Source: a virus
Length of the DNA stretch: 64,000 bases
Virus record (IMG/VR): IMGVR_UViG_3300031088_000734
Reading direction: 5' to 3' (one strand)
Shown: one piece after another, positions 7,064 to 21,579 of the stretch
Layout: each line of letters opens with the position of its first letter
Numbering within the stretch: the stretch's first letter is position 1
Made by a program: the position numbers and the translations under genes
The notes under the pieces: generated by a model
What the model was told of the DNA's origin: nothing
The model's input: only the letters and a program-made list of their open reading frames with translations
Database searches by the model: none

Positions 7064-7111
7064 AAAAAAGTATTGACTTATAGCGTTCATTGTTTTATAA
7101 TTATCAACATT

Positions 7112-7195
7112 GCGGAAGTGATGAAATGGTAGACGTTCTGGTCTTAGAAGCCAGTGCCGAGAGGCGTGTGGGTTCGAGTCCCACCTTCCGCACCA
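7112..7195 (+). tRNA. tRNA-Leu (anticodon TAG)
   Basis: GCGGAAG/CTTCCGC acceptor, CTGGT-cttagaa-GCCAG anticodon arm (TAG at 7145-7147), long variable arm, GTGGG-TTCGAGT-CCCAC T arm, encoded CCA. Confidence 0.95.
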
Positions 7196-7204
7196 TTTTA
7201 ATAT

Positions 7205-7231
7205 AGGCTCACATTTGTGGGTCTTTTTTTT
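7205..7231 (+). terminator. Intrinsic terminator after tRNA-Leu
   Basis: AGGCTCAC-attt-GTGGGTCT plus T run. Confidence 0.75.
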
Positions 7232-14349: not shown

Positions 14350-14378
14350 TTGACTTTATAGATAATTTATTGTAAGAT
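14350..14378 (+). promoter_or_regulatory. tnpB promoter, probably giving a leaderless mRNA
   Basis: TTGACT-17 nt-TAAGAT; ATG 7 nt downstream; no SD. Confidence 0.6.
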
Positions 14379-14385
14379 TCCCAAA

Positions 14386-15453
14386 ATGGATAACCTAACG
14401 ACTATTAAAACTCTAAAGCTTAGAGTTAAAGACAAATATAAAGGCGTTCTTTGCCAGATGGCGAAGAACGTTAACTTTGTTTGGAACTTCGTTAATGAAA
14501 TCAGCACTCGCTCAATTGTCGAGCGTGACAAATTCCTTTCCGCTAGAGATCTTCAAAAATACACCGATGGTTCTTCGAAACTAATCAACTTGCATAGTCA
14601 AACTATTCAAGGAATTTGTGACGAATATGCGACTCGTAGAATTCAATTCAAAAAAAGAAAATTAAAATGGAGAAAATCGGTAGGTTCTAAACGATCTCTT
14701 GGTTGGGTTCCTTTTAAGAGTGGTGCTGTTTCTTATAAAAATGGTCAAATTCATTTTAATAAACATCATTTCTCTATTTGGGACAGTTACGGACTGTCCC
14801 AATATAAATTCAAAAGTGGTTCTTTTAATGAAGATGCTCGTGGTAGATGGTACTTCAACGTGGCGGTTGAAGTTCCAAGAACATTATCTTCAAGTCAAGG
14901 TAGTGTAGGGATTGATCTTGGATTTAAAGAATCGGCTGTTTGCAGTGACGGTTTTAAAACAGAAAGAAATCGGATTTATCGTTCTTATGAAAAGAAATTA
15001 GCCATTGCTCAACGTTCTAACAACAAAGTTAGAACGAGAGCTATTCACGCTAAAATTGCTAATATTCGAAAAGATACACTCCATAAATTCACAAATCATT
15101 TGGTCAAAAACTACAGTGAAATTTATGTAGGTGATTTGAGCATTAAAAAAATGCTCAAAGCTAAAAGAGGAAAGTCTACGTTAGATGCCGCTCACGGCAT
15201 GATAAGAAGTATGCTGGTCTATAAATGCGATAACGCAGGCATACATCACAATGTGAATGTAGACGAAAAAAACACTACCCGCACCTGTCATTCGTGTAAG
15301 TCCTTAACAGGACCGAAAGGATTAGATGGGCTGCGAATAAGAGTATGGACTTGTTGTGTGTGTGGTGACACACACAACCGGGATGAAAATTCCGCTAAGA
15401 ATATACTCGAGGTCGGACATGGCCTTCTAGCAGTAGGAATCCCCTTGCTTTAG
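14386..15453 (+). CDS. tnpB: RNA-guided endonuclease TnpB
   Basis: RuvC-I VGIDLG, Zn finger CHSC/CCVC, RuvC-III HNRDENSAKNI, typical N-terminus IKTLKLRVKD...NFVWN. Confidence 0.92.
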   Translation: MDNLTTIKTLKLRVKDKYKGVLCQMAKNVNFVWNFVNEISTRSIVERDKFLSARDLQKYTDGSSKLINLHSQTIQGICDEYATRRIQFKKRKLKWRKSVGSKRSLGWVPFKSGAVSYKNGQIHFNKHHFSIWDSYGLSQYKFKSGSFNEDARGRWYFNVAVEVPRTLSSSQGSVGIDLGFKESAVCSDGFKTERNRIYRSYEKKLAIAQRSNNKVRTRAIHAKIANIRKDTLHKFTNHLVKNYSEIYVGDLSIKKMLKAKRGKSTLDAAHGMIRSMLVYKCDNAGIHHNVNVDEKNTTRTCHSCKSLTGPKGLDGLRIRVWTCCVCGDTHNRDENSAKNILEVGHGLLAVGIPLL

Positions 15454-16399: not shown

Positions 16400-16981
16400 T
16401 TATTGCTTTTGGAACTTATCCCATTCTTCTTTAATGGTTTCCGAATCAACAAATACTGCTAGGTTTTCATAGACCACATCATTAATCTTGATATTGCGAT
16501 CTCGACCCACTGACATACCTAGAATAGCTAACTTGTCTTCAGAGTATACTGGGCCACCTGACATACCACCAATCGTTCGGGAATCACTAATCGCATAACG
16601 ACCATCTTTAAATTCAACTTCGTCTTGAATGAACTTACCACGCAGTTCAACAGTCAGACCGTTGTCTTTTGGCCCTACATGAATCACTTCTTCATCGGCT
16701 TTTGGATTTCGCCATTCAATGGCTGGATTGAACTTGTCGTTAGGTTTATTCTTGAAGAACACCAGATCAACGGTATCACTGACATACGCAGGATCTTCTG
16801 GGTATTTGTTATGCTTTGCGGTTACGGCATATTCTTCATTCCACTGAATAAAGCTAGCTGTAATCACTTCAGGGTTTTTGTTATTGACAATCATTTCGTA
16901 GTTGCTATTGGGAGCATGACTTGAACACGCTGATATAATTGCAGCCAAAGCTAATGAACACATCATTTTAAACATTTTCAA
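16400..16981 (-). CDS. Trypsin-like serine protease lipoprotein (triad intact)
   Basis: Lipobox ISA-C; YAVTAKH, DLVFF, GGMSGGPV. Confidence 0.8.
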   Translation of the reverse strand: MKMFKMMCSLALAAIISACSSHAPNSNYEMIVNNKNPEVITASFIQWNEEYAVTAKHNKYPEDPAYVSDTVDLVFFKNKPNDKFNPAIEWRNPKADEEVIHVGPKDNGLTVELRGKFIQDEVEFKDGRYAISDSRTIGGMSGGPVYSEDKLAILGMSVGRDRNIKINDVVYENLAVFVDSETIKEEWDKFQKQ

Positions 16982-17050: not shown

Positions 17051-17638
17051 TTATTTCTTATTAGTATTTTGAAATTTGTCCCATTCTTGTTCAATTTTCG
17101 AACTTTCAATAAACAACGCAATATCAGGATAGATCACTCCATTGATTTTTGCATTGTTAGCCTTGGCTACGGACATACCCAGAATGGATTGTTTGTCTTC
17201 GGAATAAACAGGGCCACCCGACATCCCTTTGATAATGGCTGCACTGCTAACAGAGTAAGCTGCACCTTCATACAGAATTTCTTGATTAATCGAAGTGCCA
17301 TGTCGTGTCAGTGTCCGATCACCAGAACTAGAACCTACATGTGTTACAGGTTCCTCAATTGATGGATTACGCCACTGAATGTTGGAGTTGAATCCTTTGT
17401 CAGCCGGATGTTTAAAGAAGGCCAGATCATATGTCTCACTTACATAGTCAGGATTTTTTGGATACAGGTTGTGCTTTGCGGTTACAGCATATTCGCTGTT
17501 CCATTGAATATAGCTGGCACTAATCACTTTTCCATCTTGCAGGTCAGTGATTTTTTTGTAATTGCTGTTAGGGGGAGAACTACAAGCAGCTACCAGTACA
17601 ACACACGCCATCACCACAATCATTTTCAGCATTTTCAT
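17051..17638 (-). CDS. Trypsin-like serine protease lipoprotein (triad intact)
   Basis: Lipobox VAA-C; YAVTAKH, DLAFF, KGMSGGPV; tandem paralogue of 16400..16981. Confidence 0.8.
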   Translation of the reverse strand: MKMLKMIVVMACVVLVAACSSPPNSNYKKITDLQDGKVISASYIQWNSEYAVTAKHNLYPKNPDYVSETYDLAFFKHPADKGFNSNIQWRNPSIEEPVTHVGSSSGDRTLTRHGTSINQEILYEGAAYSVSSAAIIKGMSGGPVYSEDKQSILGMSVAKANNAKINGVIYPDIALFIESSKIEQEWDKFQNTNKK

Positions 17639-17787
17639 GAATAACTGTCTCCGTTTAAATTTGCATTATTATAGTATAAATTGAGTAAAAACACAAGGTT
17701 AATGTGCTTTCGCTCTTTAATATGGCGATGTTTTCATAAATGATTATTATTATCAACAAGTTATGCCTGTATGAAAGCAAAAACACA

Positions 17788-17816
17788 TTGACTTCTTGGT
17801 TTGTATTTGTTATTAT
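17788..17816 (+). promoter_or_regulatory. sigma70 promoter of tRNA-like RNA
   Basis: TTGACT-17 nt-TATTAT with TG extension; predicted start about 17822. Confidence 0.75.
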
Positions 17817-17821
17817 TGAGC

Positions 17822-17918
17822 CACTAGATAGAGATGACGATGGAATCGCCTCACAGCAAGGTTAGATCATCTTTAGGTTCAGCGGCGATTGGTTGGGTTC
17901 GAGTCCCAGATCTAGTGT
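17822..17918 (+). ncRNA. tRNA-shaped small RNA with 8-bp acceptor stem, expanded central loop and no CCA
   Basis: CACTAGAT/ATCTAGTG, T arm TTGGG-TTCGAGT-CCCAG, inner stem AATCGCC/GGCGATT enclosing 33 nt; own promoter and terminator. Confidence 0.65.
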
Positions 17919-17919
17919 G

Positions 17920-17951
17920 AGGACTTACAATTATGTGAGTCCTTTTTTTTT
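17920..17951 (+). terminator. Intrinsic terminator
   Basis: GGACTTACA-atta-TGTGAGTCC plus T run. Confidence 0.8.
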
Positions 17952-17962
17952 GGAGATTTTTT

Positions 17963-18589
17963 ATGGAAACATTACATAAACAGTATTATAAGGCGGCTCT
18001 TGTCGTTTTATTGCTCGTTTTAATTTCTTTTTGCATTAATTCCATTGTTCTCAATCCTTTTGAACATTCTCCTTATGTCTTTCGAATTCTCTACATTGTC
18101 ACTGCCGCTCTGAGTGTTTTTGCTTTCTTTAAATCAAGAAAACTACTGGTTCAACTTGACTTGGTTAGTATTGTGAAGTATCTCTTCTCATTTGTTGTCG
18201 CTATTATCTTTTTCTCTGGCATTATGACGATATTTAATCCACAGATAACTCAACTCATTGTGGCTAAAAAATATGATGACTATTCTGTTCAAATTAAAGA
18301 AGAAGATCGTTATCAACCGCTCTATTACTATTTTGCAGTGGCCCAGCAGAAAAATAATGTCAAATATTTACTCAACTTTGAAAAAAATGGTTTGATTGAG
18401 AATTTTATTTATCTGGATGACAACGGGCTTGAAGCTTTAACCAATATCATGAAAGTTTCCAAAGACAAAAACCTTATCGAGCTGTATGATAGATTTAATA
18501 AGGATGGTAAAATTAGTAAGAAAGAAGCTAAACAGATATTGCTTTATCTTGCAACCTTTGGAGTGACTTATGAAAAACAACCTTTTTAA
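17963..18589 (+). CDS. Membrane protein (3 N-terminal TM helices)
   Basis: 208 aa; GGAG RBS; hydrophobic N-half. Confidence 0.75.
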   Translation: METLHKQYYKAALVVLLLVLISFCINSIVLNPFEHSPYVFRILYIVTAALSVFAFFKSRKLLVQLDLVSIVKYLFSFVVAIIFFSGIMTIFNPQITQLIVAKKYDDYSVQIKEEDRYQPLYYYFAVAQQKNNVKYLLNFEKNGLIENFIYLDDNGLEALTNIMKVSKDKNLIELYDRFNKDGKISKKEAKQILLYLATFGVTYEKQPF

Positions 18590-18883: not shown

Positions 18884-19234
18884 TTGATCATGGGTAATAA
18901 AAATAAACCACAACGTTTTGAAGGCTTTTGGTGGTCAGAACGTGAACCCCACTTCCCTAAACCTGTCAGCTCTGATGTCGAGTTTGAAGGCAAAGCTGCA
19001 GTGGTTGAAGCACTCGAAAAACTGGAAAAAAATATTTATACTCACAAAGACAGGGCTGGCACTTGTGTTTATTTCAAAGGGTGGTCTAACTGTCGCTGTT
19101 GTGGGGCAGAAAATGGCTCAGCGGAATTTTCTTACAAGAACTGGAAATGGCCTGATGGGTTGTCTCATTATGTCAAAGTGCATAATGTGAAACCATCCGA
19201 TGACTTCTTGAAAGATGTGTTACATATCAGTTAA
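18884..19234 (+). CDS. Hypothetical protein with CRCC and WKWPDGLSHY motifs
   Basis: AAGGAG RBS (ATG 18890); possible metal-binding Cys/His. Confidence 0.75.
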   Translation: MIMGNKNKPQRFEGFWWSEREPHFPKPVSSDVEFEGKAAVVEALEKLEKNIYTHKDRAGTCVYFKGWSNCRCCGAENGSAEFSYKNWKWPDGLSHYVKVHNVKPSDDFLKDVLHIS

Positions 19235-19305
19235 GTTGTATTCCTGCCATCCTTGATTGTCTGTTCTCAAAATGGTATAATATCTTATCATTTTGAGGAT
19301 AGATC

Positions 19306-20337: not shown

Positions 20338-21357
20338 ATGACTTTCGAACGCGATCTTGATCAATTTTACACCAACAGTGACATCGCTCTTAAATGCTAT
20401 GACTTACTGCAAGGTGTACTGGCACAAAACAATATCAAACCCACAATATGGTTAGAACCCTCAGCCGGTTCTGGTGCGTTCTTTTCTATTGTCTCTGGTA
20501 GTAAGCTTGGTATTGATATTGATCCGAAAATTGATAAAGTCGTCAAGGCAGATTTTTTGGAATACCCTTTGAAAGACGAAGGTTATATCACCATTGGTAA
20601 TCCTCCATTTGGCAAGAATTCCAGTTTAGCCATCAAGTTTTTTAACAAATGTGCAGAAGTTTCCAAAGTCGTCGCCTTTATTGTGCCGAAGACCTTTAAG
20701 AAAGACAGTGTGCAAAAGAAGTTGAATAACCACATGCACCTTGCGTTTGAATGGGATGTGCCCAGCAACTCTTTTAACATTAAGAAAGAAATTGTGGATG
20801 TGCCTTGTGTCTTTCAAGTTTGGATTAAACAAGACATCGTTCGTCAAAGCACCAACAAAAGCTCGCTGGCGGAAGATTTCATCTTCACTAATAGAACCAC
20901 GGCTAACATCGCATTTCAACGAGTAGGGGTAAGAGCTGGCACCATTAAGGGCTGTGCGGCGTTCCCTGAAATTGCTGATGCCTCACATTTGTTTATCAAT
21001 ACCTTACAACCTGATGTTGTGAAAATTTTAAAAGTGATTGACTGGTCAGCTATTAAGTTTAATACGGCTGGTAACCCAAGTATTTCAAAGCGTGAATTGA
21101 TCAGCGAATACACTCGATACAAAGCGAGCCTTGTGGGTATTATTGATGACTATCTGTTGTTTAATTTCGACGGCGTTATCTCTATTGTGTTCTTGGTGAA
21201 TGGCAATGTGTTCAACATCAAAGTTGAAAACGATAACCTTGTGTTCCATGATGCTATTTTTAAAATTCAAGTCGGTAATGTTGACTTTAATTTGGTGAAA
21301 GCGGCTTATCTTGATTTCAAAAAAATGTTGAATGAAAACATCACTAAAAAAAGTTAA
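20338..21357 (+). CDS. SAM-dependent DNA methyltransferase (N6-adenine/N4-cytosine type), orphan
   Basis: Motif I WLEPSAGSGAF and motif IV IGNPPFG; no adjacent restriction nuclease. Confidence 0.8.
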   Translation: MTFERDLDQFYTNSDIALKCYDLLQGVLAQNNIKPTIWLEPSAGSGAFFSIVSGSKLGIDIDPKIDKVVKADFLEYPLKDEGYITIGNPPFGKNSSLAIKFFNKCAEVSKVVAFIVPKTFKKDSVQKKLNNHMHLAFEWDVPSNSFNIKKEIVDVPCVFQVWIKQDIVRQSTNKSSLAEDFIFTNRTTANIAFQRVGVRAGTIKGCAAFPEIADASHLFINTLQPDVVKILKVIDWSAIKFNTAGNPSISKRELISEYTRYKASLVGIIDDYLLFNFDGVISIVFLVNGNVFNIKVENDNLVFHDAIFKIQVGNVDFNLVKAAYLDFKKMLNENITKKS

Positions 21358-21450: not shown

Positions 21451-21524
21451 GGCTGCTTGGCAGAATGGTCATGTACCGGATTGCAAATCCGAGTATGGGG
21501 GTTCGATTCCCTCAGCAGCCTCCA
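21451..21524 (+). tRNA. tRNA-Cys (anticodon GCA)
   Basis: GGCTGCT/AGCAGCC acceptor, CCGGA-ttGCAaa-TCCGA anticodon arm, GGTTCGATTCC T arm, encoded CCA. Confidence 0.93.
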
Positions 21525-21579
21525 ACTTTAAAACACAAAAAAAGACATCTTCTGATGTCTTTTTTATTGTCTTTATTTT

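Follow-up and report, generated by a model that had tools for sequence, protein, structure and literature searches.

The 64,000-nt stretch of viral DNA analysed here (the window) carries on its plus strand a small stand-alone RNA gene, and comparison among homologues supports well that the RNA is real and folds as the top half of a tRNA joined to a pseudoknot. In the reading that we prefer, with a probability of roughly 45%, it is a non-decoding, tRNA-derived RNA of about 95 nt from a jumbo-phage-like element that acts in trans as a tRNA look-alike, and its terminator throttles the operon behind it. The original prediction had described a tRNA mimic with an 8/5 acceptor/T fold and a large open loop in place of the anticodon loop. 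The stand-alone, non-decoding character and the dedicated promoter and terminator stand, and the geometry does not. The features, all on the plus strand, are as follows.

17788-17816, plus strand: sigma-70-type promoter, TTGACT, 17 nt and a TG-extended TATTAT (sequence and homologues)
17823-17917, plus strand: predicted body of the tRNA-like RNA, positions 2-96 (covariance model and start context)
17823-17829, plus strand: 5' strand of the acceptor-like stem, positions 2-8, ACUAGAU, pairing with 17910-17916
17831-17841, plus strand: 5' strand of pseudoknot helix S1, positions 10-16 and 18-20, the D-like segment, pairing with 17861-17863 and 17867-17873
17844-17850, plus strand: 5' strand of stem S2, AAUCGCC, positions 23-29, pairing with 17884-17890
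17851-17860, plus strand: loop L2, UCACAGNAAG, invariant except at position 36
17861-17873, plus strand: 3' strand of S1, positions 40-42 and 46-52, around an invariant AGA bulge (43-45) (covariation)
17874-17883, plus strand: loop L3, (U)AGGUUCAGC, invariant from A54, with a 1-nt length change at its 5' edge in three variants
17884-17890, plus strand: 3' strand of S2, GGCGAUU, followed by an invariant GG linker at 17891-17892 (homologues)
17893-17909, plus strand: T arm, a 5-bp stem and the 7-nt loop UUCGAGU (stem covariation)
17910-17917, plus strand: 3' strand of the acceptor-like stem, AUCUAGU, and the discriminator-like base (homologues)
17919-17951, plus strand: intrinsic terminator, a 10-11-bp hairpin and nine U, present in all variants
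17952-18589, plus strand: GGAGA ribosome-binding site and ORF208, adjoining the terminator U-tract
17963-18589, plus strand: ORF208, a membrane protein and the first gene of an ORF208-ORF94-ORF116 block

The window is part of a 179-kb IMG/VR record that is classed as a provirus, with an estimated completeness of 55%, and the GC content of the element is 34%. The record encodes two relatives of virion proteins, and RNA and translation functions are an investment of the element: it carries a T4 Rnl1-like RNA ligase (E = 6e-74), a ribosome recycling factor, and three tRNA genes. The nearest cultured-phage match of the ligase is in the Ralstonia jumbo phage RsoM2USA (344 kb, 43.5% identity), in which only ordinary phage tRNAs match the covariance model of the tRNA-like RNA, at 13-15 bits. 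Neither a large terminase nor a tmRNA was seen in the examined parts of the incomplete element. ARAGORN at default settings finds only tRNA-Leu(UAG) and tRNA-Cys in the window, and Rfam gathering scores return the same two; these real tRNAs score 54-58 bits, and both genes encode CCA. A TnpB gene at 14386-15453 was considered as a partner of the RNA and rejected, as it lies 2.4 kb away and is missing from the other loci.

The family comprises 17 loci with 11 distinct RNA sequences (the variants referred to below). All 17 score 96-126 bits against a covariance model built from the first five, and in all 17 fetched loci the promoter, the RNA and the terminator occur together. Four sister IMG/VR records turned up in exact-word scans for the RNA, which occurs once per record. 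Pattern scans of viral contigs, metagenome contigs and species genomes revealed no relatives beyond this lineage; they returned the four sister records and chance matches, the latter rejected by the covariance model. Scans with the neighbouring genes (ORF208, ORF116 and an ORF116 alignment) led only to records already known. As far as these searches can recognise it, the family belongs to a single lineage. When the window lineage is compared with the rest, the highly conserved neighbouring gene ORF116 shows an identity of only 0.29-0.39 at four-fold degenerate sites, which means saturation, and across that same divergence the RNA is 86-95% identical. Decay and pseudogene status are thereby excluded. 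The homologues show no ordinary tRNA in decay, and compensatory changes occur in both S1 and the T stem.

The original prediction placed an 8-bp stem at the ends of the RNA, with transcription starting at its first base. The terminal strands CACTAGAT and ATCTAGTG do pair at the ends of the 96-nt stretch in the window, but conservation does not extend to the outermost pair (1-96), which is C-G in seven variants, U-A in one, and a C/A mismatch in three. Every variant has, after the -10 hexamer, 5 nt and then a pyrimidine and an A, which gives the preferred start context Y(-1)A(+1). Because pair 1-96 is not conserved and this context is present in every variant, transcription most likely starts at A2 (17823), with position 1 (17822) probably lying just upstream as base -1 of the promoter. 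On the same grounds, the fold is most likely an ordinary 7/5 tRNA top half, in which the acceptor stem, of 7 bp, stacks on a T arm of 5 bp and position 96 acts as the discriminator. A leaderless start at A2 would make an RNase P cut unnecessary. The likeness to tRNA-Sec and allo-tRNAs consequently falls away: their 13-bp stack (8/5, 9/4, 8/4 or 9/3) has no counterpart in the conserved 7/5 stack, nor does the RNA have a D stem, an anticodon arm, or a variable arm; its D-like segment is engaged in the pseudoknot, and the "variable" region consists of two G. The T loop is present in sequence as originally read (TTCGAGT in the DNA), and the T stem covaries (72-88 as CG/UG/UA and 73-87 as UA/GC/GU).

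The 7-bp stem AATCGCC/GGCGATT exists as proposed and is invariant in the 11 variants. The 33 nt inside it, however, are not an open loop. Their centre pairs with the D-like segment (10-16/46-52 and 18-20/40-42), leaving C17 and A43-G44-A45 unpaired, and this helix S1 covaries, with pair 16-46 occurring as AU/CG/GC, 14-48 as UA/CG, and 19-41 as CG/AU; at 18-42 and 10-52, the changes affect only one side. S1 and the 7-bp stem S2 (23-29/63-69) combine into a well-supported H-type pseudoknot with predicted loops of 2, 10, and about 10 nt. Across the 11 distinct homologues, pairing holds in 97.9% of cells versus 32-42% with slid partners, both-sided changes occur at six pairs, and the covariation score was reached by none of 500 shuffles. 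This support for the pseudoknot is wholly comparative and comes from 11 sequences of one narrow lineage with few independent compensatory events; in the window sequence alone, the pseudoknot duplex has -8.2 kcal/mol, which 25% of shuffles equal. The minimum free energy of the RNA has a z-score of -2.66. A competing register for the small helix (19-22/41-44) is mismatched in four of the 11 variants versus none for 18-20/40-42, and D-arm-like hairpins (GAU/AUC, 12-14/24-26; CGAU/AUCG, 17-20/24-27) are broken in one type of variant (L096/L101).

Conservation is distributed unevenly over the fold. All seven S2 pairs are invariant in the 11 variants, and the only change in the seven acceptor pairs turns an A-U into a G-U (A7/G7), so none of these 14 pairs shows a compensatory change; in the T stem and S1 together, some 40% of pairs have switched type, and variation in the T loop is confined to positions 82-83. 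With neutral sites saturated, this pattern points beyond a mere need for pairing: the acceptor stem, S2, L2, L3 and the GG linker are probably read sequence-specifically, whether by a partner or in tertiary contacts. Sequences complementary to the two loops, which would be candidate targets in trans, are not enriched in the 179-kb record.

The transcription unit agrees with the original prediction in most respects. The promoter TTGACT-17-TATTAT is there with a TG extension and is retained as TTGACT-N17-TAWTAT at a constant distance in 11 of 11 variants, with a spacer that varies in sequence. The terminator hairpin (17919-17944, then nine T) begins two bases past the terminal stem, and changes in its stem compensate one another among the variants (GGACUUAC/GUGAGUCC versus GGCUUAC/GUAAGCC). 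Between the two, the discriminator-like base is G in the window and A in four variants and is followed by UGAGG or AUGGGG; as claimed, CCA is not encoded, although it is in the tRNA-Leu and tRNA-Cys genes of the window. The gene is built like the tRNA-Leu gene of the element, which has the same type of promoter (TTGACT-17-TATAAT), room for a short leader, and its own terminator.

The tRNA-like parts of the RNA are limited to the T arm and the acceptor stem. No anticodon arm is compatible with the covariation, by which the RNA is judged to be non-decoding. The ARAGORN and Rfam searches suggested in the original prediction recognised no tRNA, tRNA-Sec or tmRNA; specifically, tRNA gave no Rfam match at gathering score or at E = 10 and no ARAGORN match at default. 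The RNA has no part that looks like an anticodon stem-loop, which weakens the proposal of a decoy for anticodon nucleases. A resemblance to skipping-rope RNAs found no backing in an Rfam match at E up to 10 (release 15, in which inclusion of that model was not confirmed by name). A permissive Rfam search of 17600-18100 (E up to 10) gave four sub-threshold matches, of which only SpF41 (RF02435, a Streptococcus sRNA) touches the RNA. What it has in common with our RNA is a stem that closes the structure, a hairpin like the T arm (GGUUCGAAUCC) and a terminator, and its score of 21 bits against a threshold of 52 (E = 0.75, 3' half only) does not amount to membership.

Downstream, in 11 of 11 variants, the GGAGA site of ORF208 follows directly on the terminator U-tract. 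We found 15 ORF208 homologues at 52-98% identity and fetched the DNA for nine, all from the 52-58% group; the RNA lies directly upstream of the ORF208 homologue in all nine and in the four IMG/VR relatives, and the gene on the other side of the RNA differs. The window genes upstream of the RNA are oppositely oriented, and the next good promoter is at 19253. Since no other promoter is visible in the window and the upstream genes are opposed, ORF208, ORF94 and ORF116 would be transcribed only by read-through, and we conclude that the predicted terminator both makes the RNA and throttles the downstream operon. None of the three proteins has a match to a toxin, RNA-binding or defence family in Pfam, PHROGs or PADLOC, and the ESM Atlas was unhelpful. 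The fifth gene in the row encodes a type II DNA methyltransferase.

Attenuators and leaders have this layout, in which a promoter and an intrinsic terminator flank a structured RNA immediately ahead of a gene, and the RNA may act in cis as the 5' part of the ORF208-ORF94-ORF116 transcript, with the terminator either leaky or regulated by a factor or ligand. We regard such a leader or dosage unit as rather unlikely overall, though much in the arrangement is consistent with it: the invariable contact of U-tract and GGAGA site, the single visible promoter, and the presence of the RNA before every fetched ORF208 homologue, even at 52-58% identity and despite the differing upstream gene. The linkage may, however, be plain synteny in a narrow lineage, throughout which ORF116 is 86-93% identical. 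H-type pseudoknots whose loops and one stem are invariant, as found here, are typical of small ligand-binding aptamers, but a canonical tRNA T arm with an invariant acceptor stem is, to our knowledge, a feature of no known leader or riboswitch. A conserved antiterminator pairing is absent. The one candidate, CCUCACA (28-34) with UGUGAGG (97-103), pairs perfectly in the window; four variants have lost it, with AAUGGGG as their trailer and CCUCACA unchanged in every variant, and no other complements to either strand of the terminator are present. In an alternative form, the layout would give an excess of RNA over an RNA-binding downstream protein, as in type III toxin-antitoxin systems. Like ToxIN, the unit consists of a promoter, a pseudoknotted RNA, a terminator and a protein gene, with RNA excess expected; unlike it, there is a single RNA copy rather than tandem repeats as in ToxI, the shape is tRNA-like, and the downstream membrane protein has no ToxN/AbiQ-type match. 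PADLOC and Pfam gave no ToxN/CptN/TenpN-type match for ORF208, ORF94 or ORF116, in keeping with the missing toxin, RNA-binding and defence matches that count against the leader or dosage unit.

Distinctly unlikely, in our judgement, is a chargeable tRNA-like RNA that takes part in translation. The terminator would be trimmed off (e.g., by RNase Z/BN), CCA added by the host, and the RNA aminoacylated through its acceptor stem, after which it would act on the ribosome like the tRNA-like domain of a tag-less tmRNA or donate its amino acid elsewhere. Some T4 tRNAs lack an encoded CCA and are matured by host RNase BN (RNase Z/BN) and the CCA-adding enzyme, a precedent for CCA-less phage tRNA precursors matured by host enzymes, so the missing CCA is not decisive against charging; it does weigh against it that the real tRNAs of the element encode CCA and that the discriminator varies between G and A. 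The layout resembles a tmRNA domain in its 7/5 top half, in the 14-nt segment that occupies the D position, and in having a helix at the point from which an anticodon stem would begin, but the D-like segment is paired, whereas it is free in tmRNA. The invariant acceptor stem resembles the identity elements of aminoacyl-tRNA synthetases, and the ribosome recycling factor of the element would suit a role in translation. Against this, G3-U70 is absent (the third pair is U-A if the stem is numbered as 7 bp and C-G if it is numbered as 8 bp), no tmRNA family matches at E = 10, and ARAGORN in tmRNA mode (-m) finds nothing at a 70% threshold. In the variants L105, L100 and L099, one inserted nucleotide throws a candidate tag frame (GCA AGG UUA GAU CAU CUU UAG, encoding ARLDHL-stop) out of register, and the substitutions in that frame track base-pairing rather than codons. 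The RNA thus fails the tmRNA tests of G3-U70, an ACCA end, a model match and a conserved tag frame. No SmpB (PF01668) and no CCA-adding enzyme was found in the five element records, each only 22-59% complete. Tag-less tmRNAs that consist of the tRNA-like domain only have precedents in mycobacteriophage DS6A and some plastids (PMC4131195, PMC11915505).

Barely credible is an intron-bearing tRNA, or a tRNA pseudogene in decay. GUUCAGC beside the 7-bp stem is readable as an anticodon loop with a UCA anticodon if the preceding 26 nt were removed, as the original prediction speculated, but these 26 nt comprise an invariant loop and the strand that covaries with the D-like segment, by which they belong to the mature fold and not to an intron. 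We know of no bacterial mechanism that would remove a 26-nt insert at that position of a tRNA. Under the standard code (table 11) the window is densely filled with open reading frames, and reassignment of a stop codon is unnecessary. When ARAGORN is relaxed to an 80% threshold with introns allowed, it draws a tRNA-Met(CAU) with a 12-nt intron. The covariation contradicts this drawing: two variants have CGU in place of its CAU, with U14 replaced by C in compensation, and in these variants the D stem that it draws is disrupted. The saturated neutral divergence described above speaks likewise against decay.

Returning to the preferred reading of a tRNA look-alike acting in trans, its nearest precedent for a mechanism is, by analogy, the tRNA-like-domain-only tmRNA of phage DS6A. 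An RNA similar to the DS6A form inhibits tmRNA whether chargeable or not, perhaps by titrating SmpB (PMC4131195, PMC11915505). In common with the tmRNA domain of DS6A and plastids, the RNA described here has an acceptor stem stacked on a canonical T arm with neither D stem nor anticodon, a helix leaving where the anticodon stem would start, and a pseudoknot in the body; both types have phage-borne examples, and the proposed action would in each case be titration of a partner that binds the tRNA domain. It differs from the tmRNA domain in having no G3-U70, ACCA, tag frame or tmRNA model match, in its variable discriminator, in the use of its D-like segment for the pseudoknot rather than an elbow loop, and in the lack of SmpB in the examined parts of the element.

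Other tRNA-like RNAs are more distant. The 3' tRNA-like structures (TLS) of plant viruses, mascRNA, and the YrlA module likewise mimic the L shape or the top half of tRNA to recruit tRNA-handling enzymes, and pseudoknots are used among them. In the plant-virus TLS, the pseudoknot builds the acceptor arm, which ends in CCA, whereas here the acceptor is a plain helix with no CCA and the pseudoknot replaces the D/anticodon half; the Ro-binding stem of the bacterial Y RNA YrlA is absent. T4 RNAs C and D are located among the tRNA genes of that phage. As with these and the T4 tRNAs, we are dealing with a small gene of the stable-RNA type in a large phage, though one without a cloverleaf or an anticodon; RNAs C and D are late, whereas the promoter here is host-type and early-looking. 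The function of T4 RNAs C and D is still unknown (PMC9697503).

Mechanistically, we propose that host RNA polymerase would start at the strong sigma-70-type promoter with the first acceptor base, A (17823), and that the strong intrinsic terminator would halt most transcripts a few bases past the discriminator-like base, setting a high ratio of RNA to mRNA for the three small downstream genes. As the homologues show, the RNA keeps the tRNA top half, and the D-like segment, the centre of the former "anticodon loop" and S2 form the compact H-type pseudoknot. The acceptor/T-arm half may then be bound by some protein or machine that reads this part of tRNAs, the candidates being enzymes that process, modify or charge tRNA, defence or toxin enzymes directed at tRNA, and factors associated with the ribosome. 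With specificity supplied by the pseudoknot knob, the RNA would titrate, block or scaffold its partner. A bolder version, which we consider unlikely, is an all-RNA counterpart of a complex between a tRNA domain and a protein, in which the knob of about 60 nt replaces SmpB or the anticodon arm, and which serves early in infection either to plug or redirect a host machine (ribosome rescue or tRNA maturation) or as a sponge for a tRNA-directed immune nuclease or transferase. If true, it would be the first RNA-only decoy of the tRNA top half described in phage.

Large phages carry many tRNAs and translation factors but few non-coding RNAs with a known role. The acceptor/T-arm half of tRNA is recognised by processing enzymes, synthetases, EF-Tu, the elbow contacts of the ribosome, and several tRNA-directed toxins, and the RNA described here, sharply delimited and under strong selection, keeps exactly that half and swaps the decoding half for a pseudoknot of fixed sequence. 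Should it turn out to be a leader instead, attenuators would gain a new class that is constructed from a tRNA. As a decoy or scaffold, it would offer a compact natural design (about 95 nt) for a mimic of the tRNA top half and would reveal a new route by which phages may interfere with tRNA biology or tRNA-based immunity.

Genes upstream of the tRNA-like RNA on the window include:

14386-15453, (+) strand, TnpB/IS605 OrfB-type protein with Cas12f1-like TNB and OrfB_IS605 domains
16400-16981, (-) strand, trypsin-like peptidase, first of a tandem pair
17051-17638, (-) strand, trypsin-like peptidase, second of the pair

The peptidases match the protease family phrog_9683 (E = 1e-17 to 1e-19) and are oriented divergently from the RNA gene, and relatives of them are found upstream of the RNA at some sister loci. 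The TnpB-type gene, which has its own promoter-like site at 14350, is missing from the sister loci of the RNA.

Downstream of the RNA and ORF208, the first of three small genes that follow it directly, are:

18884-19234, (+) strand, ORF116, a DUF7919 protein that looks zinc-binding
20338-21357, (+) strand, orphan type II DNA methyltransferase with GSGAF and NPPF motifs, assigned by PADLOC to MTase_II (E = 5e-39)
21451-21567, (+) strand, tRNA-Cys, following the methyltransferase

Across lineages, ORF116 retains 86-93% identity, whereas the adjacent ORF208 retains only 52-57%; constraint within this small operon is very uneven.

The jumbo-phage-like element encodes further RNA and translation functions, both in the window and elsewhere on its 179-kb record (G000):

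7073-7230, (+) strand, tRNA-Leu(UAG) unit with its own TTGACT-17-TATAAT promoter and terminator
G000:C1:13334-13822, (-) strand, outside the window, ribosome recycling factor (PF01765, E = 5e-51)
G000:C1:84051-85265, (-) strand, ~0.7 kb before window position 1, T4 Rnl1-like RNA ligase (phrog_562, E = 6e-74)

CCA is encoded in both tRNA-Leu(UAG) and tRNA-Cys, and is absent from the gene of the tRNA-like RNA. The ribosome recycling factor gene also occurs in three other records of the set (G001, G003, and G004), and the closest cultured relative of the RNA ligase is that of the Ralstonia jumbo phage RsoM2USA (43.5% identity).

Sister "provirus" records were cut from contigs of 1.84-1.92 Mb that come from two independent assembly projects, namely those carrying the sister loci L094 (jgi 3300034157 Ga0370506_000001; 1,917,244 bp) and L096 (ena ERZ27281805 k141_522346; 1,843,594 bp). 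A Pfam search of the 12-kb stretches flanking the RNA on these two contigs gave zero matches. The contigs may belong to a bacterial chromosome that contains a huge viral-like region, or they may be a phage-like replicon of extraordinary size.
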